DNA of 64,000 nt, taken from NCBI GenBank assembly GCA_034421135.1, contig DAOUKQ010000029.1, positions 76,357 through 140,356 on the forward strand, written 5' to 3'. Under the pieces are notes generated by a model. The model made no database searches, had not been told where the DNA came from, and was given only the letters and a program-made list of their open reading frames with translations. Origin of the DNA: Dehalococcoidia bacterium. Its GTDB lineage: Bacteria; Chloroflexota; Dehalococcoidia; Bin125. Shown one piece after another: positions 4,917 through 63,593 of the stretch. The position numbers and the translations under genes were made by a program. Position 1 is the first letter of the stretch, and each line of letters begins with the position of its first letter.

Positions 4917-5434
4917 GCGTTGTGTCCGTTCCCGGAATGTCTGTCGATGTGGGTGCGCTCGTGCTCGAGGAACCACTCCTTGCGATGCAATCCGCCGCCG
5001 TAGCCGCCCAGACCGCCGTCGGAGCGAACGATTCGGTGGCACGGAACGGCAATGCCGACGGGATTGCGTCCCGTCGCGGTTCCCACCGCACGATACGCCG
5101 CTGGTTTGCCGACCGCCCGCGCGATGTCCTGGTACGACACCGTCGTCCCGGCGGGTACCTCGCGGATGGCCTGCCACACCGCTCGCTGGAACTCGGTCCC
5201 CTGGGGATCGATCTCAATCTCATCGATCAGTTCGACATCGCCTTCGAAGTACGCCGCGACCGCGTCGCGAAGACGCTGGGCCTCGCTCGACAGGCCCGAC
5301 TCCTCCGAGTCCGCTTCGGGCTCCAGCACCGGCCGCGCCCAGGTCTCGACGAATCCCGCCTCGCGCAGCGCGCCATCGGCGATCGCCAGGTACATCGTGC
5401 CCAGCGGGGTCTCAATCCAGCAGTGCTCGGTCAT
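4913..5434 (-). CDS. ogt: Methylated-DNA--protein-cysteine methyltransferase
   Basis: 173 aa; active-site PCHRIV motif, AGT C-terminal HTH; 4-nt overlap with the downstream nitroreductase gene. Confidence 0.85.
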   Translation of the reverse strand: MTEHCWIETPLGTMYLAIADGALREAGFVETWARPVLEPEADSEESGLSSEAQRLRDAVAAYFEGDVELIDEIEIDPQGTEFQRAVWQAIREVPAGTTVSYQDIARAVGKPAAYRAVGTATGRNPVGIAVPCHRIVRSDGGLGGYGGGLHRKEWFLEHERTHIDRHSGNGHNA

Positions 5435-5546
5435 GTCGGTGCTCCTCGGTGTTCGCTGCTGCTAGGCTACGCCGCTGTCAAGTAGAACGCAAGTACTGTG
5501 CGCCCTGGTATCCACTGAGTATCATGACCCGCAGGAGGATTGCGAC

Positions 5547-6188
5547 ATGGTGACCACGGCCGCGCCGTCCAGGCAATCCGCAGACCGGTCTCCCGGTTTC
5601 AACCGGTCGGATGAAGTGGTGATCGCCTTCCCCGACGACCTCAGCCTGACCGATGAACTGATCTGCGAACTGTCGCGCCTCAACGATTCGCTCAGGCTGG
5701 AACGGGACGAGCAAGGGAGGCTGCTGGTGTCGCCTGGGCCGGACTATGACAGCGACGATCACGCTGCGGAGTTGATCGAACAGATCAGCGTGTGGAATCG
5801 TACCCAACGCGGTCGCACGTTGATCCCAAGTACCACGTTGCATCTCCCCGACCACAATCTGCGCATGCCGGACGCCGGCTGGCTCAGTCCCGAGACGGCG
5901 GAACAAGCGCGCTCGGGCGAGCGCCCCTATCCGCAGGTCGTGCCGGACTTCGTGGTTGAGGTGCGTTCCTCAAACGACCGGTTGCCGGTTCAACAGGAAA
6001 AGATGGCCATGTGGATGCGCAATGGCGTCCGCCTCGGCTGGCTCGTCGATCCGTCTTCGCGCACGGTCTGGGTCTATCGACCCGACACAGAAGCGCAGGC
6101 TCATCAGGATCCCGGAGAGCTTTCGGCCGATCCTCCCTGCGAGGGCCTGACGATCTCGTTCGAACGCGTTTGGCGGACAGCGGAGTAG
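5547..6188 (+). CDS. Uma2 family (DUF820) restriction-endonuclease-fold protein, copy 1
   Basis: 213 aa; PD-(D/E)xK-like core PDFVVEVRSSNDRL...KMAMWMRNGVRLGWLVDP...VWVYRPD typical of Uma2/DUF820. Confidence 0.75.
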   Translation: MVTTAAPSRQSADRSPGFNRSDEVVIAFPDDLSLTDELICELSRLNDSLRLERDEQGRLLVSPGPDYDSDDHAAELIEQISVWNRTQRGRTLIPSTTLHLPDHNLRMPDAGWLSPETAEQARSGERPYPQVVPDFVVEVRSSNDRLPVQQEKMAMWMRNGVRLGWLVDPSSRTVWVYRPDTEAQAHQDPGELSADPPCEGLTISFERVWRTAE

Positions 6189-6200
6189 GCTCGAACAGCC

Positions 6201-6404
6201 ATGTCCGAATGCGACACCCGCGCCGTGCGTCTGACCGATCTCCTCCGAGTCCGCTTCAAGTTCCAGCACCGGCCGCGCCCAGGTTTCCACGAGTCCCGCC
6301 TCGCGCAGCGCGTCGTCGGCGATCGCCAGGTACATCGTATCCAGCGGCGTCTCGATCCAGTCGTGCTCGTTCGTGTCGCCGCTCCGCCTCTTCGCTGGCA
6401 TTAG
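6201..6404 (+). pseudogene. Chimeric duplication-junction ORF: first 14 codons of selD (MSECDTRAVRLTDL) fused to antisense of a duplicated ogt 5' fragment
   Basis: 6201-6242 is near-identical to selD start 7138-7180; 6240-6400 duplicates ogt 5291-5450 (minus-strand ORF 5970..6401 re-encodes the ogt N-terminus MYLAIADDALREAG). Confidence 0.6.
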
Positions 6405-6485
6405 GCTCAGGCGACATGAACTAGCACGTAAGTACTGTGCTAATCGCGCCTACCTGGGTATCATGGCGCTAAGGAGGATTGCGAC

Positions 6486-7127
6486 ATGGTGACCACGGCA
6501 GCGCCGTCCAGGCAATCCGCATCCCGCTCGTTCGCCTCAGTCTTGCAGGGCGAGGTCGCGATTGCGTTTCCGGACTCGATCAGCCTGACCGATGAGCTGA
6601 TCTGCGAACTGTCGCGCCTCAACGATTCGCTCAGGCTGGAGCGGGACGAGCAAGGGAGGCTGCTGGTGTCGCCTGGGCCGGACTATGACAGCAACCGAGT
6701 GGGCGCTCGCATTTTGGCGCAAATCTTCGCCTGGGATCCGGAATGGCTTGGGGAGCCGCTTGATCCTTCGTCGACGCTGCACCTTCCCGACCACAATCTG
6801 CGCATGCCGGACGCCGGTTGGCTCAGTCCCGAGACGGCGGAACGGGCGCGCTCGGGCGAGCGCCCCTATCCGCAGGTCGTGCCGGACTTCGTGGTTGAGG
6901 TGCGGTCTTCGAACGACCGGCTGTCCGTTCAACAGGAAAAAATGGCCATGTGGATGCGCAATGGCGTCCGCCTCGGCTGGCTCGTCGATCCGCCTTCGCG
7001 CACGGTCTGGGTCTATCGACCCGACACAGAAGCGCAGGCGCATCAGGATCCCGGAGAGCTTGCGGCCGATCCTCCCTGCGAGGGCCTGACGATCTCGTTC
7101 GAGCGCGTTTGGCTGATGGCGGAGTAG
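6486..7127 (+). CDS. Uma2 family (DUF820) protein, copy 2 (tandem duplicate of 5547..6188)
   Basis: 213 aa, identical to copy 1 except two divergent patches (aa 13-24 and 68-98). Confidence 0.75.
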   Translation: MVTTAAPSRQSASRSFASVLQGEVAIAFPDSISLTDELICELSRLNDSLRLERDEQGRLLVSPGPDYDSNRVGARILAQIFAWDPEWLGEPLDPSSTLHLPDHNLRMPDAGWLSPETAERARSGERPYPQVVPDFVVEVRSSNDRLSVQQEKMAMWMRNGVRLGWLVDPPSRTVWVYRPDTEAQAHQDPGELAADPPCEGLTISFERVWLMAE

Positions 7128-7137
7128 GCTCGAAGGC

Positions 7138-8241
7138 ATGTCCGACCGCGACAATCGAGCCGTCCGACTCACCGACCTCGCCCGCTGCGGCGGTTGAGGC
7201 TCGAAGTTTGGCCCCGAGGGGCTGGCGCACGTGCTGCGCCATCTTGGACCACAGTTTCCGCCCGAGCAGCATCCCGAGTTGCTCGTCGGCCTCGACCGGC
7301 CCGACGACGCAGCGGTCTACGCGCTCGACGACGAACGCGCGCTTGTGCAGACGCTCGATTTCTTCGCGCCGTTGGTCGACGACCCATACCAGTTCGGCGC
7401 AATCGCGGCCGCCAACGCCATGTCGGATGTCTACGCAATGGGTGGACGCGTCCTCTTCGCGCTCAACATCGCCGCCTTCCCCGACGACCTCCCGCCCGAC
7501 ATAATCGCGGAAGTCCTGCGCGGAGGCGCAGACAAGGTTCGCGAAGCTGGAGCCGTGATCGCCGGCGGACACACGATCATCGACGAAGAGCCCAAGTACG
7601 GTCTCGCGGTCACTGGCGAAGTCGCACGCGAACTGATTCGCACAACCGGCGGCGCACAGCCGGGCGACACGATCATTCTGACCAAGGAAATCGGCACCGG
7701 CGTCCTGATTGGCGCGAACCAGCAGGGCGCGGTGTCAGCGGAGCACTGGGACGGTGCAGTCTCGCAAATGATGTCGCTGAACCGGGATGCGGCCGAAGTC
7801 TCATCCGCTTCCGACCTGGCGCAGGGCGTCCATGCGATCGCAGACGTGACCGGCTTCGGACTCGCTGGACACCTGCATGAGATGTCGGGGCTGAGCGATG
7901 CCGCGATCGAGATTGACCTCGGCGCGGCGCCGGCGCTGGGCGGCCTTTCGGAGGCCGTGGCGGCAGGATTCGGCAGCGGCGGACAGAGTCGCAATCGCGA
8001 GTACTATGGCGCGCGCCTGACGGTCGAGGGCGACCGCGCACTGACCGCCTTCGAGGAAGCGCTGCTCTACGACCCGCAAACTTCCGGAGGCCTGCTGATC
8101 TCTGCGGGCATCATCGAGGCGCCGCATCTGATCCACGAACTTCAGCAACGCGGCGTCCAGGCGACACCCGTCGCTCGCGTGATTGAATCCGCCGCCGGCG
8201 GGCGACTGAGCGTTATTCCCTCGGAGACGCCGCGTGTCTGA
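7138..8241 (+). CDS. selD: Selenide, water dikinase (selenophosphate synthetase), selenocysteine-containing; in-frame UGA at 7195-7197
   Basis: ORF track starts at GTG 7231, but the in-frame upstream reads ATG(7138) MSDRDNRAVRLTDLARCGG-TGA-GSKFGPEGLAHVL, matching the E. coli SelD N-terminus [30 protein letters not shown] with UGA aligned to catalytic Cys17; downstream has AIAAANAMSDVYAMGG and the AIR-synthase-like fold. Confidence 0.8.
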
Positions 8242-19703: not shown

Positions 19704-19874
19704 CTTGCGTGTAAACCGACCCGGTCCAGTCCCCGACTTGTTCGGGGACCCGTTCCCGTTCGGCTCTACCGGGTATCTACCAGGTACGAGACGGGGAGCC
19801 GAGCGGGTCCCCGAACAAGTCGGGGACTGGGCGGAGTGCGCCATCGCTTTGAAGCTCGGGTTCACGCGCAGGCC
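19704..19874. repeat. MITE/REP-like palindromic repeat, family A copy 1 (TIR GAGACYTGCGYGTAAACC; core CAGTCCCCGACTTGTTCGGGGACCCG ... CGGGTCCCCGAACAAGTCGGGGACTGG)
   Basis: Same ~170-bp element recurs at 32188-32362, 33533-33706 and (degenerate, inverted) 51690-51870; strong internal inverted repeat. Confidence 0.75.
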
Positions 19875-32168: not shown

Positions 32169-32362
32169 TCCCCTCTCCCAGAGGAGACTGGCGCGTAAAC
32201 CCGACTTTCGTCGCACGCGGGCTCTGGCTCCCAGTCCCCGACTTGTTCGGGGACCCGTTCCCGTTCGGCACTACCGGAGATCTAGCAGGTACGAGACGGG
32301 CAGCCGAGCGGGTCCCCGAACAAGTCGGGGACTGGATCGGGTCGGTTTACGCGAAGGTCTCC
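32169..32362. repeat. MITE/REP-like repeat family A copy 2 (with a family-B-like CCCTCTCCCAGAGGAGAC leader)
   Basis: TIRs GCGCGTAAACCCGAC ... GTCGGTTTACGCGAAGGTCTCC flanking the shared core palindrome. Confidence 0.75.
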
Positions 32363-33532: not shown

Positions 33533-33706
33533 CTGCGCGCAAACCGAACGGGTCCAGTCCCCGACTTGTTCGGGGACCCGTTCCCTGACTGCACTGCGGG
33601 GGCTCTACCAGTGTCGAGACGGTGAGCCGAGCGGGTCCCCGAACAAGTCGGGGACTGGAACACAGGGTGCGTTTGTGACGACGATCGGGTTTACACGCAG
33701 GTCTGC
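33533..33706. repeat. MITE/REP-like repeat family A copy 3
   Basis: CTGCGCGCAAACCGAACGG + core palindrome + CGGGTTTACACGCAGGTCTGCG. Confidence 0.75.
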
Positions 33707-51689: not shown

Positions 51690-51870
51690 GACGAGCCTTC
51701 TCCCATACGAGACTTGCGCGTAAGCCTGATCTTCATCGCCTGGGCGCGCATTTCCCATTCCGCGCTTCATGCGGGGACCCGCTCGGCTTGCCTTCGCGTA
51801 CCTGGTTAGGTCCTGGTAGCGCCGACAGGGAACGGGTCCCCGAATAAATCGGGGACTGGGACTGGGATGA
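51690..51870. repeat. MITE/REP-like repeat family A copy 4 (degenerate, inverted orientation)
   Basis: GAGACTTGCGCGTAAGCC ... GGGGACCCGCTCGGC ... GGGAACGGGTCCCCGAATAAATCGGGGACTGGG. Confidence 0.6.
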
Positions 51871-51950: not shown

Positions 51951-52322
51951 ATGAACGCAGCAGCGGCTCAATACGCCGCCCGAGGGCGAAAGTACCTCGC
52001 ACGGGCCTCAGACGAACTTGCCAGGGATGACCTGGAGCAGGCTTCGGAGAAAGGCTGGGGCGCGGCAGCCCAGTTCGCGAAAGCGGCGGCGGAGCAGCGC
52101 GACTGGCCGCATGGACAGCATCGGCAATTGTTTGGCGTCGTGCGGCGGCTGTCGGACGAGGTTGGCGAGCGCGATCTTCAGGTTCACTTCGGCCTCGCCA
52201 GCGATCTCCACGCCAACTTTTGCGAGGGATTCCTCGAGCAGGAGGATGTGCTGTTTCACCTGGAACACGTCACCCTGTTTGTCGACCGCATCGAGGAGAT
52301 GCTCTCCAACGGCGCCGCGTGA
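51951..52322 (+). CDS. PaREP1-like / HEPN-like helical domain protein
   Basis: ~124 aa from MNAAAAQYAARGRKYL; SEKGWGAAAQFAKAAAE pattern reminiscent of the PaREP1 family, possible R-x4-H (RDLQVH); assignment tentative. Confidence 0.3.
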   Translation: MNAAAAQYAARGRKYLARASDELARDDLEQASEKGWGAAAQFAKAAAEQRDWPHGQHRQLFGVVRRLSDEVGERDLQVHFGLASDLHANFCEGFLEQEDVLFHLEHVTLFVDRIEEMLSNGAA

Positions 52323-53769: not shown

Positions 53770-54579
53770 TCAGCGGGATGATTCTTGAAGCCGTTCGATC
53801 CCCTGACGGTGCAGGCCGCTGTTTGCGGTCGCCAGGACTTGCGAACCCGACTCGATAGAAAGCGAACAGCCCGACCAGTCCGTCATTTGCCCGCCTGCGC
53901 CACGCACAATCGGGGCCAACGCAAGATAGTCCCAGCGCTTGAGCGACGCCTCGCAGACAACTTCCAGGAACCCGGAGGCCAACAGGCCGTAGGCATAGCA
54001 ATCGGCGCCGTAGCGAACCCGCTGTAAGGCTCCCGACAGCCGCGACCATGCCGATTGTTCCGCTCCGGAGAACATCTCAGGCGTGGTTGCGAAGCCGACA
54101 GCCTGCGCGAGATCCGACGTTGAAGAGCTGTGGACAACCTGTGAATTGTGTGTAGTTCGTGCCATGACACCGGGATAGTCAACGCCGGACCAGCGGTCCA
54201 TCAATATCGGTTGGTCAAGTACCCCGACCAGCGGTATGCCGTCTCTGAGTAGCCCGATCAGGGTCCCGAACGTCGGCAAACCAGACACAAACGCGCCTGT
54301 ACCGTCGATGGGATCGATCACCCAGACCCACTCCGCATCGACCCGATCGGAGCCGAACTCCTCGCCGATGATGCCGTGCTCGGGATACCGGTCCGCAATG
54401 CGCTCGCGAATCGCCAGCTCGGCTCCGCGGTCGGCGCGTGTCACCGGCGACCCGTCATCCTTCCGATCGATCTGCATCGGGCTGCGGAACCAGGGTCGGA
54501 TCGCATCGCCCGCAGCGTCCGCGAGCTCACCTGCGAACTGCAGGTACATGTCTGCGACTAACTCACGCGGGTCCGGCAT
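53770..54579 (-). CDS. Inositol monophosphatase family protein (SuhB/HisN-like)
   Basis: 269 aa; metal-binding motifs EEFG, WVIDPIDGT, and C-terminal WDxxA region. Confidence 0.8.
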   Translation of the reverse strand: MPDPRELVADMYLQFAGELADAAGDAIRPWFRSPMQIDRKDDGSPVTRADRGAELAIRERIADRYPEHGIIGEEFGSDRVDAEWVWVIDPIDGTGAFVSGLPTFGTLIGLLRDGIPLVGVLDQPILMDRWSGVDYPGVMARTTHNSQVVHSSSTSDLAQAVGFATTPEMFSGAEQSAWSRLSGALQRVRYGADCYAYGLLASGFLEVVCEASLKRWDYLALAPIVRGAGGQMTDWSGCSLSIESGSQVLATANSGLHRQGIERLQESSR

Positions 54580-54766
54580 GTCTCAAGCCTACCGCGCGCG
54601 TCCTCGGCGTCGCGGTTGGCGGGGTATGTAGCCAGCGACAGCGCCAGGCTCAGGCTGCTGATACATTGCAGTACTCGCAGGTGGACGACGCGGTCGCCAA
54701 CGTGCGGGATTCCGATCCACGTCGGCACATCATGCTTGACCGCAACACTCGCGGAAGGATTGACTC

Positions 54767-55867
<1,101 letters not shown>

Positions 55868-55960
55868 CCGACTGATTGCGTCAGCGCTTCTTCTTGACGA
55901 TGTCATTCCCGCACAGGCGGGAAGCCTTCCAGGATCAGCTCCATCAGAGAGTCCCAAGCC

Positions 55961-56827
55961 ATGCACTGGCTCGCGGCCGGATACTGGACGCTGGGCCGAG
56001 CGGCCCGCGCGCTGCCTCGGCCACTCGCATATGCCGCCGCCAGGCGGCTCATGGACGCCGTCTACCTGGGTTGGCCGCGCGGACGCGACGCCGCCGGTCG
56101 AAACGCCGAGTTTCTGCTGCCGCACATTAACTGGAGCGAAGACGCGACCTCGCTCGCACGAGCCCAGTTCCGTCGCTACGGCGAGTACCTGGTCGACGCC
56201 GTCCGCCTGGACGAGCTATCGCCCGCCGACTGCTTCGAGGCGGTCGGCGGCGACGATCTCGCATGGACCGACCACTGGCGACAACTCGAACAGTGGCACG
56301 GACGACGCCCGATCCTCTTCGCAGTCATCCATTTCGGCAACTGGGACATCCTCGGCGGCGCCCACACGTACCGCATCGGCCCATCGATGGTCCTTGTCGA
56401 CGACCTCGGGCATCCCGCGCTCAACCGAGCCATCCAGGATCAACGAGCCAGACTCGGGATGACTCCCGCGAGCGGACGCGGCGGCCTCAGGCAGGTCATC
56501 AATCACCTCGACGCCAACGGCACGGCCGCCATCCTCTTCGATCGCCCCTTTAGACCCGGCGAGCAAACGACAACCGACACGCTCTTCACCCGCCCGCTTC
56601 GGCTTCCAAACGAGATTCACCGCATCGCCGAGCGAACCGGCGCCAAGGTCGTACCCCTCACCTGCACCCGCCTCGGACACATCTTCCGCTTCCGCCCCCA
56701 CATCGACCTCGACTATCACCCTGGCCAAGCACTGCTCCCCGCCTTCGAGCCCGCAATCCGCTCCGCCCCCGATCAGTGGTACCAGTTTCGGCCCCTCTTC
56801 GACCTGCCTGGATCCGATGCTGACTGA
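55961..56827 (+). CDS. Lysophospholipid acyltransferase (LPLAT; HtrB/PatA-like)
   Basis: 288 aa; HFGNWD acyltransferase H(x)4D motif; context with ino1 and a CDP-alcohol phosphatidyltransferase suggests phosphatidylinositol(-mannoside) acylation. Confidence 0.65.
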   Translation: MHWLAAGYWTLGRAARALPRPLAYAAARRLMDAVYLGWPRGRDAAGRNAEFLLPHINWSEDATSLARAQFRRYGEYLVDAVRLDELSPADCFEAVGGDDLAWTDHWRQLEQWHGRRPILFAVIHFGNWDILGGAHTYRIGPSMVLVDDLGHPALNRAIQDQRARLGMTPASGRGGLRQVINHLDANGTAAILFDRPFRPGEQTTTDTLFTRPLRLPNEIHRIAERTGAKVVPLTCTRLGHIFRFRPHIDLDYHPGQALLPAFEPAIRSAPDQWYQFRPLFDLPGSDAD

Positions 56828-56851
56828 CCGATGGCTGTGCTCGCTTCGCGC

Positions 56852-57346
56852 TTAGGCCTCGGAAGGATCGCGTTGATGGACAACTCGCTCTACCCGATCG
56901 AGACGTCGATGCATCGCACTGATGAACGCGAGCCATTCCATGGCCTCGATCTGGCTGACCGGTAGATCATCCTCGTGGGTGTACGGATTCCGTACGGCGA
57001 CAGCCAAGCCAACGGCGAGAAATCGAAACCCATTATGAAGATCTTGTTTGGTCAGAGAGTCCCGGTGCTCGTGAAAGGCCAGAATCGGTCTGTCTTCTGA
57101 GAACACGTGATTCATTAAGGAGCGGTTATTCAAGTCTGGCCGATCGGCCTGCTCTGCGACCCGGTTCTTGAACCGCTCGGCCGCTTTCCGGACGGCCTCT
57201 TGCGGCTCTCCGACCTCGTAGAGGGACCGTGCAAGCTGCACCTCGTGATGCAGTTGGTCGAACGACAGATGCGAATCGTGGCGCGAGTATTCATCCGCCA
57301 TTGGAAACCAGATCTTGTGCAAGCCCCTGCGCTGCTTCAGCGCCAA
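56852..57346 (-). CDS. HEPN domain protein, Ymh/TIGR02391 family (putative RNase toxin / abortive-infection effector)
   Basis: 164 aa; C-terminal R-x4-H motif VAVRNPYTHEDD in an all-helical domain matching the Hypoth_Ymh (HEPN) family from memory; overlaps the upstream partner gene. Confidence 0.5.
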   Translation of the reverse strand: MALKQRRGLHKIWFPMADEYSRHDSHLSFDQLHHEVQLARSLYEVGEPQEAVRKAAERFKNRVAEQADRPDLNNRSLMNHVFSEDRPILAFHEHRDSLTKQDLHNGFRFLAVGLAVAVRNPYTHEDDLPVSQIEAMEWLAFISAMHRRLDRVERVVHQRDPSEA

Positions 57347-57896
57347 TCACCCGCATCCGCACCAGTCGGTTCTGTGAGCCCGGCTTGCCCCGCACCGCGA
57401 TCAAATCGAGTTTGGTCAGAGTGGTCATGAAGTTCGAGTCGAACTTCCCGTATGCCTCCACCGCCTCGCGAATCTGCTTGGTTCCTGTTTCTATCCCAAG
57501 CGCTGTGCGCGAACCGCACACGAGCAGAGCGATCTGTCGAACCGCTTCCGCTTTCGATCCAGCGAGCTTGCTCGACGGAATCGCCAGGGTCGGAGCCTCT
57601 TGTTCTAGGACGAAGAGGTCAGCCGCCAGTTCCGCGTCAATCCCGAAGTAGCGACCAATCGCCTGGGCCCGTGCCTGTGGCGTGGCGTAACCGGTATCAA
57701 GGTCGGTCATGCCTCGCTCGCTAGAGGACTGCAGCGCCCCGTTCGACTCTCCATTCGTGGACGGGGTCCCAGCAAGTTCATGCTCTAGCAGTTTCTCGAA
57801 CGCGATTTCCCGCAGGCGAAACTCATCGCCGCTGAGCGACTTGGTCGCCTCGCGGACGCGCTCGACGATGGCTGAGAGTTGCTCGGTCGTGGACAC
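57291..57896 (-). CDS. Hypothetical protein, upstream partner of the Ymh-HEPN gene (candidate antitoxin/sensor)
   Basis: 201 aa; helical N- and C-terminal parts separated by low-complexity linker; no recognised domain. Confidence 0.35.
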   Translation of the reverse strand: MSTTEQLSAIVERVREATKSLSGDEFRLREIAFEKLLEHELAGTPSTNGESNGALQSSSERGMTDLDTGYATPQARAQAIGRYFGIDAELAADLFVLEQEAPTLAIPSSKLAGSKAEAVRQIALLVCGSRTALGIETGTKQIREAVEAYGKFDSNFMTTLTKLDLIAVRGKPGSQNRLVRMRVIGAEAAQGLAQDLVSNGG

Positions 57897-58002
57897 GCTA
57901 AGTCTCCTTCTTGGCCAGATTATCAGAAGCGAACAGATGTCTCTGTATCTCGCGTCGCGTGCTCGTTCGTCTAGTTTGCCAATCTCATGCGAACATAGCT
58001 GT

Positions 58003-58935
58003 ATGCCAACTGCCCTTGCGATTCGCGCACTGGCCTGCCTCGCCCGCTTCGTGCCCAGGGCGTGGCTCTACATCTTCGCCGAGGCTTCCGCTTCGCTTGC
58101 GATTCCATTCCTTGAGCGCCGTCGACTCCGCATTCGCAACAACCTGCAACGCATCCGACCCGATGACTCGGTCCGCCAACTGAACCGGGCGACCGCCGAG
58201 GTCATCGCCGAGACCGCCCGTTACTACGTCGACCTGGCGATCCTGCCTTCACTGACGCCGCAACAGGTGCTGGACGGCCACCTGCATGTCGCTGGTCTCG
58301 ACCACTTGCTCGATGCGCACCGAGCCGGACGCGGGGTTGTTCTGACCACGGCGCACATCTCCAATCCCGAGGTCGCGGTCAAGGCGCTGGCCGCCCTCGG
58401 CATCCCCGCTGTCGCGCTGGTCGAGCGGCTCGACGATCCGCGACATCTCGAAGCGGTCAACGCCGCTCGCACAGCCGTTGGGATTGAGTTCCTCACGGCT
58501 TCGCAGACCGGCGTAGCGTCCGCGTTGCGGTCCCTGCGAGACGGCGGCGTCGTCTGCATCCTCTGGGACCGAGACCGACAGGGCGGCGGCGCATGCGTAC
58601 CATTCTTCGGTCGCCAGGCGCGATTTCCCGTCGGCGCAATCGACCTCGCCATTCGCGCCGACGCCGATGTCCTGCCGCTCTACGCCGTCCGACGTCCCGG
58701 CCCCGACCGGCTGCAGTTCGATGTCACCTTTCTGCCGCCGCTGGAGCTGTTACTCAAAGGCAACCGAGCGCTCGACACCCGCACCAACATCGCCAACCTC
58801 GCTCGGATCTTCGAGCCGATCATCGCCCAATACGCCCATCTCTGGCGAGTTCCCGAGTCTCCCTGGGCGCCTTGCCGCGACACGCCATGGGACGATCCGC
58901 ATCCCCGCGATCAGCCTGCCAGAGTTGAGACATGA
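58003..58935 (+). CDS. Lysophospholipid acyltransferase (LPLAT; HtrB/PatA-like), second copy
   Basis: 310 aa from MPTALAIRAL; HISNPE H(x)4E/D motif, paralog of 55961..56827; ORF-track upstream 98 codons rejected. Confidence 0.6.
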   Translation: MPTALAIRALACLARFVPRAWLYIFAEASASLAIPFLERRRLRIRNNLQRIRPDDSVRQLNRATAEVIAETARYYVDLAILPSLTPQQVLDGHLHVAGLDHLLDAHRAGRGVVLTTAHISNPEVAVKALAALGIPAVALVERLDDPRHLEAVNAARTAVGIEFLTASQTGVASALRSLRDGGVVCILWDRDRQGGGACVPFFGRQARFPVGAIDLAIRADADVLPLYAVRRPGPDRLQFDVTFLPPLELLLKGNRALDTRTNIANLARIFEPIIAQYAHLWRVPESPWAPCRDTPWDDPHPRDQPARVET

Positions 58936-59684
58936 ATGAACCCAACCAGCCGCCGGGACGGGCCGATCTCCAGATTCACACTGAAGAATCGGACGGCATG
59001 GACGACGCGCTGACCATCCTCGACGCGGCGCACCGGCGAGGCGTCGACGTCATCGCGATCACCGATCACGACCAGACCCGAGGCGCGCACATCGCGCGCG
59101 AGGCGGCGGCCCGGGCCAATCATCCCGTCGAGGTGATCGTCGGCAGCGAGGTCACCAGCCGTCACGGGCACATCCTCGCGCTTTGGATCGAGGAACCGAT
59201 TCCCTTCTTTCGCAGCGCCGCGGCGACGGTCGAAGCGATCTGGAAGCAGGGCGGCATAGCGGTCATCGCCCATCCGGCCGCCGTGTTCCCGCTCGCACTG
59301 AGCATTGGCGACATCGACCGCCTCGTCCGAGACCTCTCTCCCGAACGAAGCGGCGACACGCCGCCGATCCTGGGCATCGAGACGGCGAACCCAATCCCCT
59401 CCGCCCGCTGGCGACGCAACTCCGTCATCCAGTCCAACCAACGCTGGCGCCTCGTCACCACCGGCGGCTCCGACGCGCATTTCCACGAGCAGGTCGGCTC
59501 TGCCGTGACAACCTTCGCCGGCCGAGACCAGTCCGCACTCCGAGCCGCGCTGACTCAGGGGTCGACCGCCGCCGAGTTCAACAGCTATCCCAGTCTGCGC
59601 GACGTAGGCGCAAGCCGGCTCATCCGTCAGCAGTGGCGAGGTCTCACCGCCACACCCAAAGCCCTCCTCCGGCGGCTCCGCTAG
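58932..59684 (+). CDS. PHP-domain metal-dependent phosphoesterase
   Basis: 250 aa; PHP motifs DLQIHTEESDG, ITDHD, IAHP, GGSDAH. Confidence 0.65.
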   Translation: MNEPNQPPGRADLQIHTEESDGMDDALTILDAAHRRGVDVIAITDHDQTRGAHIAREAAARANHPVEVIVGSEVTSRHGHILALWIEEPIPFFRSAAATVEAIWKQGGIAVIAHPAAVFPLALSIGDIDRLVRDLSPERSGDTPPILGIETANPIPSARWRRNSVIQSNQRWRLVTTGGSDAHFHEQVGSAVTTFAGRDQSALRAALTQGSTAAEFNSYPSLRDVGASRLIRQQWRGLTATPKALLRRLR

Positions 59685-59712
59685 GGCTCGTTCGCTTGAC
59701 CCTGTTGTTCCG

Positions 59713-60738
59713 TTGCCTGTCAAGCCGGCCAGGTACGTCCCCCGGCTGGCGCAGCCATCCTGGACCGATATACTGCGTGCATTGGTTCTAAGTTGGAGGT
59801 TGGCCGTGACGAGTCGGCGGGTCGAAGGACAAGCTCGCTTCGCCTCCTTGGCGGATGTTCAGCCTCCGTTTCGCTTCGGCAATCAGGTTCTGTACCTACA
59901 AGACTGTCGAGATTGGCTCCGAACCGCCGCGCGCGACAGCGTGCATGCAGTCGTTACTGACCCTCCATACGGCTTGCACGAGTACCAGCCGGTGCAGGTA
60001 TCGAAACTGCGGAATGGTCGAGGCGGAGTCTGGCGAATTCCCCCTTCCTTCGACGGCGCGCAGCGTCAACCCCTGCCGCGATTCACGGTCAACTCTCCTG
60101 CCGACCGGGCGGAGTTGCGTTCGTTCTTCCGCGAGTGGGCTGAACTGCTGCTGCCTGTGCTGCGACCGGGCGGGCATGTGTTCATCGCGAGCAATCAGCT
60201 CATGTCTCCGCTGGTGGCGTCGGCTCTGGAATCGGCTGGCTTCGAGCGGAGAGGAGAGATCGTGCGGCTCGTGAGGACCCTGCGGGGCGGCGATCGACCG
60301 AAGGGCGCCCACGAAGAGTTCGCCGATGTGAGCACGATGCCGCGATCATGTTGGGAACCGTGGGGCCTGTACCGGCGACCCCTGTCCGAGTCGACGGTCG
60401 CAGGCAATCTCCGGCGTTGGGGTGTGGGAGGACTGCGCAGGGTCTCCGAACAAACTCCATTCCTTGACGTGATCGACAGTGGCAAGACCCCGGCGGCGGA
60501 ACGAGCCATAGCGACACACCTTTCGGCCAAGCCTCAGCGGTTCTTGCGCCAGATCATCAGAGCCTCATTACCCACTGGTGAGGGTGTCGTACTTGATCCC
60601 TTCGCAGGTTGCGCCACCACGCTGGCTGCCGCCGAAGCCGTTGGCGTCCACGGCATCGGAGTTGAGATCGACCCCGACTACTGGGCGCGGGCGTGTGAAG
60701 CGATCGCCCCGCTCTCCGAGCTCCGGGTCGACCAATGA
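59713..60738 (+). CDS. DNA methyltransferase, beta-class N4-cytosine/N6-adenine (N6_N4_Mtase: motif IV before motif I), putative R-M modification subunit
   Basis: 341 aa (true start may be the internal GTG near 59806); motif IV VVTDPPYG then motif I VLDPFAGCATTLAAAEAVG near the C-terminus; ATGA overlap with the downstream gene. Confidence 0.65.
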   Translation: MPVKPARYVPRLAQPSWTDILRALVLSWRLAVTSRRVEGQARFASLADVQPPFRFGNQVLYLQDCRDWLRTAARDSVHAVVTDPPYGLHEYQPVQVSKLRNGRGGVWRIPPSFDGAQRQPLPRFTVNSPADRAELRSFFREWAELLLPVLRPGGHVFIASNQLMSPLVASALESAGFERRGEIVRLVRTLRGGDRPKGAHEEFADVSTMPRSCWEPWGLYRRPLSESTVAGNLRRWGVGGLRRVSEQTPFLDVIDSGKTPAAERAIATHLSAKPQRFLRQIIRASLPTGEGVVLDPFAGCATTLAAAEAVGVHGIGVEIDPDYWARACEAIAPLSELRVDQ

Positions 60739-61640
60739 CCAACGCGGAGTTCCGGTTCCTGCAGCCCATCGTTCCGGACCCTGCAGGACTAATCGATCCG
60801 ACCTCATTGCCCGAGCCTCTGCCCTACGGTCTGGCCCCAAGGCACATTCTCAGGACGGTGGAAGACGTACAAGATCTGATTCACCAACTGAACAGCGTGC
60901 TGCAGCAGTCATCCCACGAGCCCCTGGAGGACCTGCTGGACCGGGCGGCGTTCTCAGGGTTGATCAGCCGGACAGTCGCCGCTCGTCTGGCCGAGTCGCG
61001 ACCTGGGAGCCTCGTTGTCAACCGCTATCACAACGGTTATCCAGATCTGATCCCGAAGGGGCAATACCCAGGCGACGCCATTCAACGAGGCATCGGGCTG
61101 GAGGTCAAGGCCAGTCGCAGCGAGGGTAGCTGGCAGTCACATGGTCCGAGACCAGGCTGGTTCGTCGTGGTCCAGTTCGCAATCGACGAGTCGGAGGCAG
61201 TGGCTCGTCTTCAACGACTACCGACTGTTGTTCAAGCAGTGATGATGGCGAGGTTGACCGAAGCAGACTGGTCCTGGACGCCCGCGCGGGCCAATCGAAT
61301 CCGCAGCGGCACGGCCTCGGTCAAACCAAGCGGCAAGCTGAAACTGCGAAGAGGCGCGGTCTGGGTCGCACCTTCGTTTCGGGAGCGACATGACTATCTG
61401 CGGCAATCCCTCGTCGCCTCCGAGTTCAGACGAGATCTGTCACCGAGAGTGCTGGAACTGCTCGACACCGCTAATGAGGTACTCAACGCAGCATTGATCC
61501 GCGACCAGATTGAACTGCCCAGCGAACTGGACGAAGCCAAGGCTCTGGCAGCAGTCAAGTCGGTGCTCGCGAAGCTGCGACAGGAAGGCCGCGTCGAGTC
61601 CTCCGGCAACAGAGGCTTCTATCGCAGGTCGCGGAGCTGA
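60735..61640 (+). CDS. Putative Type II restriction endonuclease (PD-(D/E)xK fold), no recognisable family
   Basis: 301 aa; candidate core GYPDLIPKGQYPGDAIQRGIGLEVKAS (PD...ExK); translationally coupled (ATGA) to the MTase. Confidence 0.45.
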   Translation: MTNAEFRFLQPIVPDPAGLIDPTSLPEPLPYGLAPRHILRTVEDVQDLIHQLNSVLQQSSHEPLEDLLDRAAFSGLISRTVAARLAESRPGSLVVNRYHNGYPDLIPKGQYPGDAIQRGIGLEVKASRSEGSWQSHGPRPGWFVVVQFAIDESEAVARLQRLPTVVQAVMMARLTEADWSWTPARANRIRSGTASVKPSGKLKLRRGAVWVAPSFRERHDYLRQSLVASEFRRDLSPRVLELLDTANEVLNAALIRDQIELPSELDEAKALAAVKSVLAKLRQEGRVESSGNRGFYRRSRS

Positions 61641-61664
61641 CGAAAGGCGCGCCGGCCAACCCTC

Positions 61665-62696
61665 ATGCGCATTGCCCACTTGCTTCCTTACGACCTCCGG
61701 CAGCCGGGTGGGGTTCAGACGCACACGCTGGCGTTGTCCGAGGGGTTGCGACGGTTGGGGCACGAGTCGGTGGTGTTTGGGCCTGAACGGGCGTTTCGGG
61801 TCTCGCTCGGCGGGACTCGGGCTGATTTGGCGTTCCACCCTGGCGACCTGCTGAAGCTTCGGGAGTTTCTGCGCCGACCTCACGACATCCTCCACATCCA
61901 GGAACCGATGCTGCCGATGCTTGGGCCACTGGGGCTGTTGCATCCGGGCGGTGCGCCGGTGGTGGTCACGTTGCACTCCGCCGAGGCGCTCGCGGGGCGG
62001 TTCTACCGCTCGACGGCTACGCTGACCCGATTCTTGCTTCGCCGCGCCGACGCCATCATCTGCGCCACTGCGGTATCGCGAGACGTCGCGGCGGCCTCCT
62101 TGCCGCGCGCCCCCGAGCTGATCCCTCCATGCCTCGACCTGTCGGCGTTTCGCGCAGTAAGCGAGCAGCGGGAGCCGGGGTTGGTGTTGTTCGTCGGACG
62201 CGACGAACCGCGTAAGGGACTCTCGGTGATCGTGAGCGCGATGAAGCGCCTTCCACACGCTCGCCTGGTCGTCGCAGGTCCGGTGCGGGAATCAACCCGG
62301 CGCAGTGCCGGGGCGCAGACCACCTTTCTCGGAGCCGTACCTCATGAGCAGATTCCCCAACTGTTGGCGACAGCGTCGTGCGCAGTCTTCCCCGCTACCG
62401 GCGGCGAGGCGCTCGGCCTGGTGCTGATCGAGGCGATGGCCTCGGGATTGCCGGTGATCGCATCCGACATTCCCGGCTACCGGATCGCTTCCGACGACGG
62501 CCGATCCGCCGTGCTCACGCCTGCCAACGACCCGGCCGCGTTGGCGCAGCATATTGAAGCGCTTCTCAACAATGATCCAAGACGAGCCGAGCTTGCGGCA
62601 CTCGGCCGCTGCAATGCCCGACGATTCGATGCCGATACGGTCGCGCAGCAGCACCTGGACCTGTATCACTCCCTCGTTCAGCCCTACTCTGGGTGA
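61665..62696 (+). CDS. Glycosyltransferase family 4 (PimA/PimB-like mannosyltransferase candidate)
   Basis: 343 aa; GT-B fold, N-terminal MRIAHLLPYDLRQPGGVQTH, C-terminal EALGLVLIEAMASGLPVIASD (E-x7-E region). Confidence 0.65.
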   Translation: MRIAHLLPYDLRQPGGVQTHTLALSEGLRRLGHESVVFGPERAFRVSLGGTRADLAFHPGDLLKLREFLRRPHDILHIQEPMLPMLGPLGLLHPGGAPVVVTLHSAEALAGRFYRSTATLTRFLLRRADAIICATAVSRDVAAASLPRAPELIPPCLDLSAFRAVSEQREPGLVLFVGRDEPRKGLSVIVSAMKRLPHARLVVAGPVRESTRRSAGAQTTFLGAVPHEQIPQLLATASCAVFPATGGEALGLVLIEAMASGLPVIASDIPGYRIASDDGRSAVLTPANDPAALAQHIEALLNNDPRRAELAALGRCNARRFDADTVAQQHLDLYHSLVQPYSG

Positions 62697-63593
62697 GTGA
62701 AGCTTCTCCGCTGCTCCGTCGTATTGGCTGCTATCGCAGTGCTGGGACTGTTTGTCGTCCTCACACCAAGTCTGTCCGCTCAAGCGCCGTCGCATGAATG
62801 GGTCGCGGCCGAGACCAACGACCTGACCCTCTGGCACACGCAGGGGGAGATTCGGGCGGAGGACCTCGCCAATCATGGACAAGGCGCGTACGACCTCGTC
62901 AGCGACCTGATCGACACCTCGATTGACCAGCGCCTCGCATTGATCGTCTGGCCGCAGGGCGGCGATCCGTCCGACGCTTCCGCCTGGCCCGAGGGCATCG
63001 AGGACGATTGGCTGGTCCTGCATGTCATGCGCAACGCATCGGGCGACGTGCGCAACGCGGTCACCAATGCGCTGATCAGCGCAGCCGCAGCGCCTCACGC
63101 CGATCAGGTGCCGCTCTGGATGCGTTCGGCGATGGGCTTCTGGTCGCAGGGCCCACTGCCCGGCTTCTACCTCAGGCGCGCCGGATCGGTGATTCTCTTC
63201 GACCATGAGGATTACTACAGCTTCGAGCAGCTTGAGACGACTCCAACCACCTGGCAGTTCCAGGCCAAGTACTTCGGACAGGCCGGCGGCATGTTGGCCT
63301 GGATGATTCAGGACTGGGGCACCGAAGCGCTGGCCGAACTGTTCCGCCTGACGGGATCAGGCGTGCCCTTCTACGACGCCCTGGAGCAGGTGTACGGCAT
63401 TCCGCAGGAGAAGTTCATCGACGAGTTCACCGGCAACGCCGAGCGTGCGCTGCTGCTGCTCTGGCCCTACATCGAGCCGCAGGATCGGCCGTTCTACGAG
63501 ACGCTGAACCTCAACCACGTGATCATGATCGCCGCCGCCATTCCCCTGGCCATCCTGTTCTTCTTTATCGGTAAACGGCTGTTTTACGACTGA
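62697..63593 (+). CDS. Secreted/membrane-anchored hypothetical protein
   Basis: 298 aa; signal peptide, C-terminal TM helix IMIAAAIPLAILFFFIG. Confidence 0.4.
   Translation: MKLLRCSVVLAAIAVLGLFVVLTPSLSAQAPSHEWVAAETNDLTLWHTQGEIRAEDLANHGQGAYDLVSDLIDTSIDQRLALIVWPQGGDPSDASAWPEGIEDDWLVLHVMRNASGDVRNAVTNALISAAAAPHADQVPLWMRSAMGFWSQGPLPGFYLRRAGSVILFDHEDYYSFEQLETTPTTWQFQAKYFGQAGGMLAWMIQDWGTEALAELFRLTGSGVPFYDALEQVYGIPQEKFIDEFTGNAERALLLLWPYIEPQDRPFYETLNLNHVIMIAAAIPLAILFFFIGKRLFYD

Follow-up and report, generated by a model that had tools for sequence, protein, structure and literature searches.

In AbiE, an upstream winged-helix antitoxin, AbiEi, autoregulates and also neutralises the downstream toxin, AbiEii. 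Winged-helix repressors of the BrxR/CapW type are found upstream of varied defence systems. A two-gene locus that resembles both in part is described here. It lies in a 64,000-nucleotide (nt) stretch of the genome of an uncultivated Dehalococcoidia bacterium (assembly GCA_034421135.1, contig DAOUKQ010000029.1, positions 76,357 to 140,356 of the forward strand; hereafter the window). The locus consists of geneA, which encodes a 201-amino-acid (aa) protein of an unannotated family with a predicted winged helix, followed by geneB, which encodes a small HEPN protein assigned by sequence to the Ymh clade. On balance, we lean towards reading the locus as a module of the toxin-antitoxin (TA)-like or abortive-infection type in which the partner family is new.

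The logic of AbiE may, by analogy, be proposed for geneA and geneB, but the AbiE toxin is a nucleotidyltransferase and the geneB product is a HEPN protein. Membership of AbiE was rejected, as geneA matches neither the AbiEi models nor any other Pfam or PADLOC family. The likeness to BrxR/CapW would lie in the wider geneA family, members of which appear likewise to precede different effector genes in different genomes. A place among the winged helix-turn-helix-WYL proteins was also rejected, given that geneA has no WYL or other ligand-binding domain detectable with Pfam; unlike BrxR/CapW, it has an N-terminal hairpin and a linker and is apparently coupled in translation to its effector. Membership of HEPN-MNT (HepT-MntA, type VII) was rejected as well: geneA shows no nucleotidyltransferase signature in Pfam or NCBIfam and is predicted to contain a winged helix instead, and the toxin of that system belongs to the DUF86/HepT clade whereas geneB belongs to Ymh.

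Members of the Ymh family (PF09509/TIGR02391) have been reported as solo genes, in fusions to paraMORC, AbiJ-NTD1/2 and AbiTii, and in restriction-modification (R-M) operons (Anantharaman et al. 2013, PMC3710099), contexts that, unlike geneA-geneB, include no obligate upstream winged-helix partner. Apart from that paper, the only papers found to name the family or its accessions were three with incidental mentions. The geneB product is a full-length member of this family, with the same R-x4-H motif and HEPN fold. The only validated system with a Ymh domain is PD-lambda-3, which comes from the E. coli pangenome (Vassallo et al. 2022, PMC9519451), consists of two genes and acts by abortive infection; it serves as an abortive-infection control in PMC13190303 and is listed elsewhere with a PD(D/E)XK nuclease domain (PMC10952713). 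Its B component carries a Ymh-type HEPN domain at the C-terminus, and geneB matches the corresponding PADLOC model (E 3.8e-11). However, geneB covers only positions 165-266 of the 270 in PD-Lambda-3_B and lacks the N-terminal 160 residues, and the A component is unmatched, geneA having no PADLOC match of any kind; assignment to PD-lambda-3 was therefore rejected, although the locus would operate in a similar manner. A small HEPN effector with a cognate partner is the known part of the arrangement; what is new is the family to which the partner belongs, together with the allelic hypervariability at a fixed site.

Results

Organisation of the gene pair

The sequence-only reading of the window had reported two overlapping open reading frames (ORFs) of 201 and 164 aa on the minus strand. 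Both were found at the positions given, but the second is likely to be shorter. The longest ORF for geneB begins with a TTG at 57346 (164 aa, 56852-57346), and an in-frame ATG at 57301 (ATGgcggaTGA) runs over the geneA stop codon with an overlap of 11 nt (Table 1). The same ATG is called as the start (149 aa) in the public contig containing the window and, as judged by the sequence, is the most likely one, the TTG being probably unused. An AAGGAG precedes geneA, and geneB has no Shine-Dalgarno-like sequence of its own. Of the nine syntenic relatives examined, most have a purine-rich stretch of the GGAG type 5' of the geneA start. The pair therefore comprises two small, adjacent, co-directional genes with overlapping frames, as in type II TA operons, and the gene order, with the DNA-binding-type protein first and the enzyme second, is also that of type II TA operons. 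The G+C content is 0.57-0.60 over the pair versus 0.63-0.69 on either side.

The 106-nt spacer upstream of geneA contains a 14-nt direct repeat, and its GTTCGC core can be made out in most of these nine relatives. The first copy stands immediately upstream of a TGATAAT element resembling a -10 box. An Rfam scan in and around the pair found no family, and no intrinsic terminator was found in the region.

The HEPN protein encoded by geneB

Pfam profile PF09509 matches geneB over profile positions 2-119 of 119 (E 1.1e-20, 74.2 bits, cut-off 25), and TIGR02391 from NCBIfam matches it with 52.4 bits (cut-off 39.45). Residues R104, N105 and H109 of the RNPYTH motif are invariant across 52 aligned homologues, which share a second invariant block, E122 W123 .. 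F126. S128 A129. H131 R132. L134 D135. In the 24 geneB copies derived from loci, R and N of the motif are invariant and H is retained in more than 85%. A total of 125 homologues were detected, all of them short stand-alone proteins (107-209 aa) with PF09509 as the only domain.

The AlphaFold2 model of the geneB product (mean predicted local distance difference test score, pLDDT, 85.5; predicted template modelling score, pTM, 0.80) is an all-alpha helical bundle of the HEPN type, and its best fold matches are HEPN domains, known toxins among them. The profile matches, the invariant RNxxxH and the modelled bundle agree with the sequence-only reading, which had assigned the protein to the Ymh clade on the strength of its R-x4-H motif. 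The hidden Markov model (HMM) search that it had proposed as a check places geneB above both cut-offs, and neither a profile match nor the motif in a helical-bundle context is lacking. On this evidence the geneB product is a bona fide Ymh-clade HEPN protein with an intact catalytic motif, for which RNase activity is predicted.

Conservation of the pair

One genome per species (GTDB) was scanned starting from geneA, which gave 23 loci, all in Chloroflexota (Dehalococcoidia and Tepidiformaceae). A Ymh gene directly follows geneA in 22 of these, and at the remaining locus, L009, geneA stands alone. For comparison of overlaps, the geneB start was taken to be whichever in-frame start codon lies closest to the geneA stop. 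The geneA stop and geneB start overlap by 1, 4, 8, 11 or 14 nt at 23 of the 24 other geneB-carrying loci, a uniformity that is partly by construction because of the way in which the start was picked. At the 24th (L020) the script had paired geneB with an upstream paralogue of geneA, and the ORF list gives a 4-nt overlap with the adjacent copy. Overlaps of 1-14 nt are also present at L037 and L042.

The association holds beyond this set. When a search was begun from a geneB homologue on a contig outside the geneA list, the upstream gene proved to belong to the geneA family (HMM E 6e-60, 1-nt overlap), and even a geneA homologue with no more than ~28% identity has a Ymh gene after it. Two geneA-geneB pairs are found within 8 kb in L004-L006 (1-858 and 8001-9085), one by mfd and one right after an Mrr-type gene, and other copies of the pair lie between luciferase-like and ApbA genes. 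The pair is conserved as a unit over many genomes and contexts.

At L009 (2196-2841) geneA is intact, and the codons for the final ~20 residues of geneB survive as an extension of it in another frame, which indicates that the HEPN gene was cleanly deleted. If geneB encodes a harmful partner, it is the gene that would be expected to be lost while geneA stays. The converse, geneB without geneA, was not seen in the 24 loci, the sampling having mostly begun from geneA.

An extra geneA paralogue, 39-41% identical to geneA of the window, lies ahead of the pair at L019 (5176-7076) and L020 (5157-7064).

The geneA family

No match to geneA was obtained with the Pfam, NCBIfam, PADLOC or PHROGs profiles, even at E values up to 1 in the case of PADLOC, and none in a phmmer search of the PDB sequences. 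A profile of the family matched only designed helical proteins in the PDB, evidently spurious (E 0.003-0.008), and 46 distant members gave chance-level matches only against the profile libraries (one such match in PADLOC). That the upstream partner of geneB belongs to no described family, as had been claimed, is thus borne out, the distant members included.

The family is large. There are 87 close homologues (44-67% identity); almost all are of ~200 aa, and no precomputed Pfam domain is recorded for any of them. Among 1.84 billion cluster representatives the geneA profile found 632 clusters (defined at 50% identity) at E values up to 0.001, of which 254 were at up to 1e-10; nearly all are of 185-215 aa and match end to end. 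Together with the 125 homologues of geneB, these numbers indicate that the geneA-geneB pair is more than a product of chance. A scan of metagenomes with a narrower alignment of the family found two loci only. Relatives of geneA were not found in the IMG/VR viral contigs, nor among PLSDB plasmids and GenBank phages, whether the query was a close member or a distant one.

In the AlphaFold2 model (pLDDT 82), the protein begins with a helical hairpin, which a disordered linker joins to the C-terminal domain (residues 70-200, pLDDT >90). This domain is confidently predicted to have a winged-helix fold, and the winged helix is followed by a single C-terminal helix and nothing more. A32 and F33 of the hairpin are near-invariant throughout the family; the linker has a mean pairwise identity of 27%, versus 64% for the winged helix. 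Foldseek matches in the PDB were to winged-helix proteins only, with non-significant E values, so that the whole architecture has no solved counterpart. Hence the earlier description of the 201-aa protein as having no recognisable domain stands as far as the profile libraries are concerned, but not for the model, with its confident winged-helix C-terminus.

Among the longer members, P0030 (333 aa) had been considered as a geneA-geneB fusion, which was ruled out, as it merely carries an N-terminal extension. The extensions in P0214, P0208 and P0151 are of low complexity and are not additional domains.

A hypervariable cassette at a fixed site

The order found in the window, PHP - acyltransferase 2 - [geneA geneB] - acyltransferase 1 - inositol-1-phosphate synthase (Ino1) - inositol monophosphatase, recurs in 12 of the 23 species-genome loci, which include L009, with geneA alone, and L014, without the upstream flank genes. 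The syntenic comparison used the ten loci in which the two genes and the two flanks are all present, the window's own contig among them. Relative to the window, the flank proteins are 68-95% identical, and the geneA and geneB proteins 40-67%. In the pairwise-identity matrices of the ten loci, geneA and geneB are correlated with each other (r 0.79), and these two with the flanks only at r 0.13-0.47; the flank genes are correlated among themselves at r 0.73-0.87, the near-saturated Ino1 excepted.

The contrast is sharpest between close relatives. In three genomes with acyltransferase 2 proteins of 96-98% identity, the geneA alleles are only 50-68% identical and the geneB alleles 59-66%. At the DNA level, an identity of 90-99% through PHP, both acyltransferases and Ino1 falls abruptly to 47-65% exactly over the cassette, the left breakpoint lying ~100 nt inside geneA in the alignment of one genome pair. 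This pattern is that of old alleles exchanged by recombination in the conserved flanks, or of strong diversifying selection. Near-identical flanks around a diverged cassette argue against a conserved housekeeping circuit. Such hypervariability is typical of conflict systems.

Both flanking genes belong to PF03279, and the sequence-only reading was correct in placing the cassette between two acyltransferase genes. It had also taken this position to be typical of a defence island, which needs qualifying: the site does not look like a classic island but is a fixed one within a cluster for inositol lipids of the phosphatidylinositol mannoside (PIM) type, and its immediate neighbours are conserved lipid genes. 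The defence genes near the pair in the window are a type II methyltransferase and a weak restriction-enzyme-like gene, 1.8 kb off and variably present. Elsewhere, one copy of the pair abuts an Mrr-type gene and others lie among metabolic genes.

Other genes downstream of geneA-family members

Outside the Dehalococcoidia clade, geneA-family genes stand ahead of other genes. At four independent metagenomic loci (L031, L033, L035 and L041), the downstream gene encodes mutually homologous proteins of 224-287 aa (52-55% identity), for which 825 homologues without Pfam annotation were found in databases, Sphaerobacter and Candidatus Eisenbacteria included. Three of the four copies match the CAP12/Pycsar TIR model over the same part at sub-threshold level (E 0.006-0.21), with no match for the L033 copy, and PDC-S35 of PADLOC is matched, again below threshold, by two of the three scanned (E 0.0015-0.007). 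Both kinds of match fall at the C-terminus. The longer forms have a winged-helix-like N-terminus, and one member is labelled as an ArsR-type regulator by one source. One of the four loci abuts a phage-type integrase.

At L035, the neighbourhood (5038-7579, 2138-2623) contains a SIR2-domain gene (PADLOC PDC-S25, E 2.5e-141), an unannotated 297-aa neighbour and a PIN-domain gene, and a second geneA-family gene is present in divergent orientation. L039 (3108-6452; L040 is identical) has two geneA-family genes in one array. The first is followed by a gene for a 242-aa protein with weak helix-turn-helix matches, and the other by genes for a 185-aa protein and a 259-aa protein of the AF_1680 family (PF27235), which has a weak match to DUF4145, a HEPN-related family. 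At L034 the gene after the geneA-family member is a second geneA-like one with a weaker match (HMM E 3e-10), and the 175-aa ORF ahead of that member does not match the family HMM.

A handful of loci and sub-threshold similarities hint that the geneA family may be a widespread, unrecognised modular partner that couples to interchangeable effectors (Ymh HEPN, the TIR-like 224-287-aa proteins, and AF_1680/DUF4145-like proteins), a tentative proposal that we hold as a possibility more than as an expectation.

Flanking lipid genes and neighbourhood

The pair is embedded in a conserved phosphatidylinositol/PIM-type lipid cluster (53770-63593), found here in a Chloroflexota genome and not in an actinobacterium. 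The cluster includes genes for an inositol monophosphatase, an inositol-1-phosphate synthase, two PF03279 acyltransferases, a PHP-domain protein and a GT4 glycosyltransferase. The start of the PHP gene overlaps the acyltransferase 2 stop codon, and a CDP-alcohol phosphatidyltransferase gene is located further along the public contig. With the PIM acyltransferase equivalog NF005919, both flanking proteins score below the cut-off (62 and 114 bits versus 209). As acyltransferase 2 starts at 58003 and not at 57709, it does not overlap geneA, and the apparent overlap is an artefact of listing the longest ORF.

A type II R-M pair lies between the PHP and glycosyltransferase genes of the cluster (59713-61640, plus strand). 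The methyltransferase, of the N4/N6 type (PADLOC MTase_II, E 2e-104; Pfam PF01555), overlaps a 301-aa gene with a weak match to REase_II (E 6e-7). Beyond the window the pair is present at four of the 23 species-genome loci (L012, L013 with a fragmented restriction endonuclease gene, L015 and L017), and L003 has a GPP34-family gene at the same position. From its sequence context, the R-M pair appears to be a second variable insertion.

The 123-aa protein encoded at 51951-52322 (plus strand) had been proposed as a second HEPN candidate resembling PaREP1, and its match to PF05942 (E 2.5e-17) confirms it as a PaREP1-family protein. This family has been placed in the HEPN-T clade and lacks the R of the motif (Anantharaman et al., PMC3710099). 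The protein has no match in PADLOC; its gene is syntenic in most relatives and is present in three tandem copies at L015. An imperfect 32-nt inverted repeat (81% complementary, arms 45 nt apart) is located 5' of the gene (51753-51861). The repeat core, GGGGACCCGCTCGG, occurs four times in the window, the other copies being at 19799-19816, 32304-32321 and 33627-33644, as compared with 0.29 expected by chance. The element noted earlier as resembling a miniature inverted-repeat transposable element (MITE) is accordingly a small dispersed repeat of the repetitive extragenic palindromic (REP)/MITE-like kind.

Table 1. Positions of the pair, its predicted domains and motifs, and associated features. 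Coordinates are those of the window except in the last row, where they are those of the loci named.
Feature	Coordinates	Strand	Description
geneA	57291..57896	minus	201 aa; GTG start at 57896; unannotated family; putative partner, antitoxin or regulator
geneB	56852..57301	minus	149 aa; solo Ymh-clade HEPN protein; predicted RNase effector or toxin
Overlap of geneA stop and geneB ATG	57291..57301	minus	11 nt, ATGGCGGATGA; may provide translational coupling
Shine-Dalgarno-like AAGGAG	57904..57909	minus	7 nt 5' of the geneA GTG; read from the sequence
HEPN catalytic motif R-N-P-Y-T-H	56975..56992	minus	R104, N105 and H109 of the 149-aa protein; read from the sequence
geneA residues 3-42, N-terminal helical hairpin	57771..57890	minus	AlphaFold2 helices H3-19 and H26-42; LRxIAFExLL motif
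geneA residues 44-65, linker	57702..57767	minus	Low complexity, predicted to be disordered (pLDDT <50); most variable part
geneA residues 115-198, winged helix-turn-helix	57303..57554	minus	Predicted; basic wing NRLVRMR
Direct repeat, copy 1	57922..57935		ATCAGAAGCGAACA; GTTCGC core on the geneA strand; candidate promoter/operator
Direct repeat, copy 2	57982..57995		ATCTCATGCGAACA; candidate element; adjoins the start of the divergent acyltransferase 2
Hypervariable cassette	56830..57990		Approximate extent, transferred by synteny; geneA, geneB and most of the 5' spacer of geneA; lower G+C
Acyltransferase 1	55961..56827	plus	288 aa; PF03279, E 6.6e-20; convergent with geneB, 24-nt gap
Acyltransferase 2	58003..58935	plus	310 aa; PF03279, E 5.2e-31; divergent from geneA, 106-nt spacer; start as called publicly
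Copies of the 224-287-aa family	L031 4832-5512; L033 1167-2030; L035 4258-4950; L041 1363-2037

Discussion

The reading that we favour on balance, a TA-like or abortive-infection module, would operate as follows. The geneA and geneB genes would form a bicistronic, translationally coupled unit in which the partner is made in a fixed ratio. The HEPN ribonuclease encoded by geneB would cut cellular or phage RNA when unrestrained, like other HEPN toxins. The winged helix of geneA would probably repress the operon's own promoter, while the N-terminal hairpin with its flexible linker would probably contact and restrain the geneB product, or sense a trigger. Loss or inactivation of geneA, for example on phage infection, would then free the RNase, leading to growth arrest or abortive infection. 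The cassette as a whole would be swapped or diversified while staying at its one chromosomal site, as is expected of a conflict system. For the pair we thus infer RNase activity, toxicity, neutralisation by direct binding, autoregulation and a part in phage defence, and its physiological role may be either abortive infection or simple addiction.

Several observations weigh against this reading. A sigma-70 consensus promoter and a palindromic operator were looked for in the region and neither was found, only the short direct repeat, and geneA is unlike any known antitoxin by sequence or whole-chain fold in the libraries and the PDB searched. Given that the phage, plasmid and viral-contig collections hold no relatives, mobility is indicated by allelic replacement only. 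The correlation between geneA and geneB identities can arise by co-inheritance of a swapped cassette and does not prove physical contact, and, with one and the same site stably occupied in 12 of the 23 loci, the pair could also have taken on a domesticated function. Finally, loci carrying only geneB could have been missed in a sampling that began mostly from geneA.

It is unlikely, although more probable than the other alternatives, that geneA is only a transcription factor that silences a self-contained HEPN effector, the latter being induced on a stress or infection signal by a logic like that of BrxR/CapW, with no protein-protein neutralisation. A repressor of this kind would suit the modelled winged-helix fold and the conserved GTTCGC repeats 5' of geneA, but overlapping stop and start codons imply a roughly fixed co-production that would be odd for a repressor and its target. 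The presence of the family upstream of differing genes in distant lineages (the 224-287-aa family at four loci, others at L039) also agrees with it. Nevertheless, DNA binding does not require the second conserved module of geneA, the hairpin with A32 and F33; no domain for sensing a ligand, of the WYL or another type, was detected with Pfam; and a free, constitutively active HEPN protein would need some other restraint.

Another explanation, which we consider distinctly improbable, is that the pair brings its host no benefit, being a purely selfish addiction module or what remains of one in decay, and that its diversity comes from neutral turnover of old alleles by recombination. Decay is at odds with the intact state of both frames and of RNxxxH in nearly all copies, and retention at the same site with maintained coupling across syntenic genomes argues for selection. 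A selfish module would have the TA-like architecture seen here and would account for the lack of matches to validated defence-system models in PADLOC other than through the shared HEPN domain; the location of some copies beside restriction genes speaks against it, and the absence of the pair from the phage and plasmid collections searched speaks for it.

Very improbable is a domesticated housekeeping role in the inositol/PIM-lipid cluster, with geneA regulating the acyltransferase-PHP operon and geneB processing or turning over its transcripts: the shared site in 12 of 23 loci with flank proteins 68-95% identical to those of the window, and the 106-nt divergent spacer common to geneA and acyltransferase 2, with a repeat copy abutting the start of the latter, would fit such a role, but the pair occurs in different neighbourhoods in other Dehalococcoidia (Mrr and Mfd; luciferase-like/ApbA), can occur twice per genome, can lose geneB while the cluster stays (L009), and is hypervariable beside nearly identical lipid genes, the opposite of a conserved regulatory circuit.

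HEPN RNases rank with the most common effectors found in bacterial immunity and in TA systems, and the Ymh clade has almost no functional literature. As a TA-like or abortive-infection module, the locus would represent a Ymh system reduced to two genes, the partner being of a new family. It would also illustrate clearly how, in nature, a conflict cassette stays at one chromosomal address while its alleles are swapped between nearly identical backgrounds, here in uncultivated Dehalococcoidia. The geneA family provides a handle on a large unannotated family and could reveal small defence or addiction modules missed by catalogues. If the tentative proposal of modular geneA partners is true, such partners and their effectors would make up a new class of conflict systems, each of two genes and maintained as hypervariable alleles at fixed chromosomal sites.

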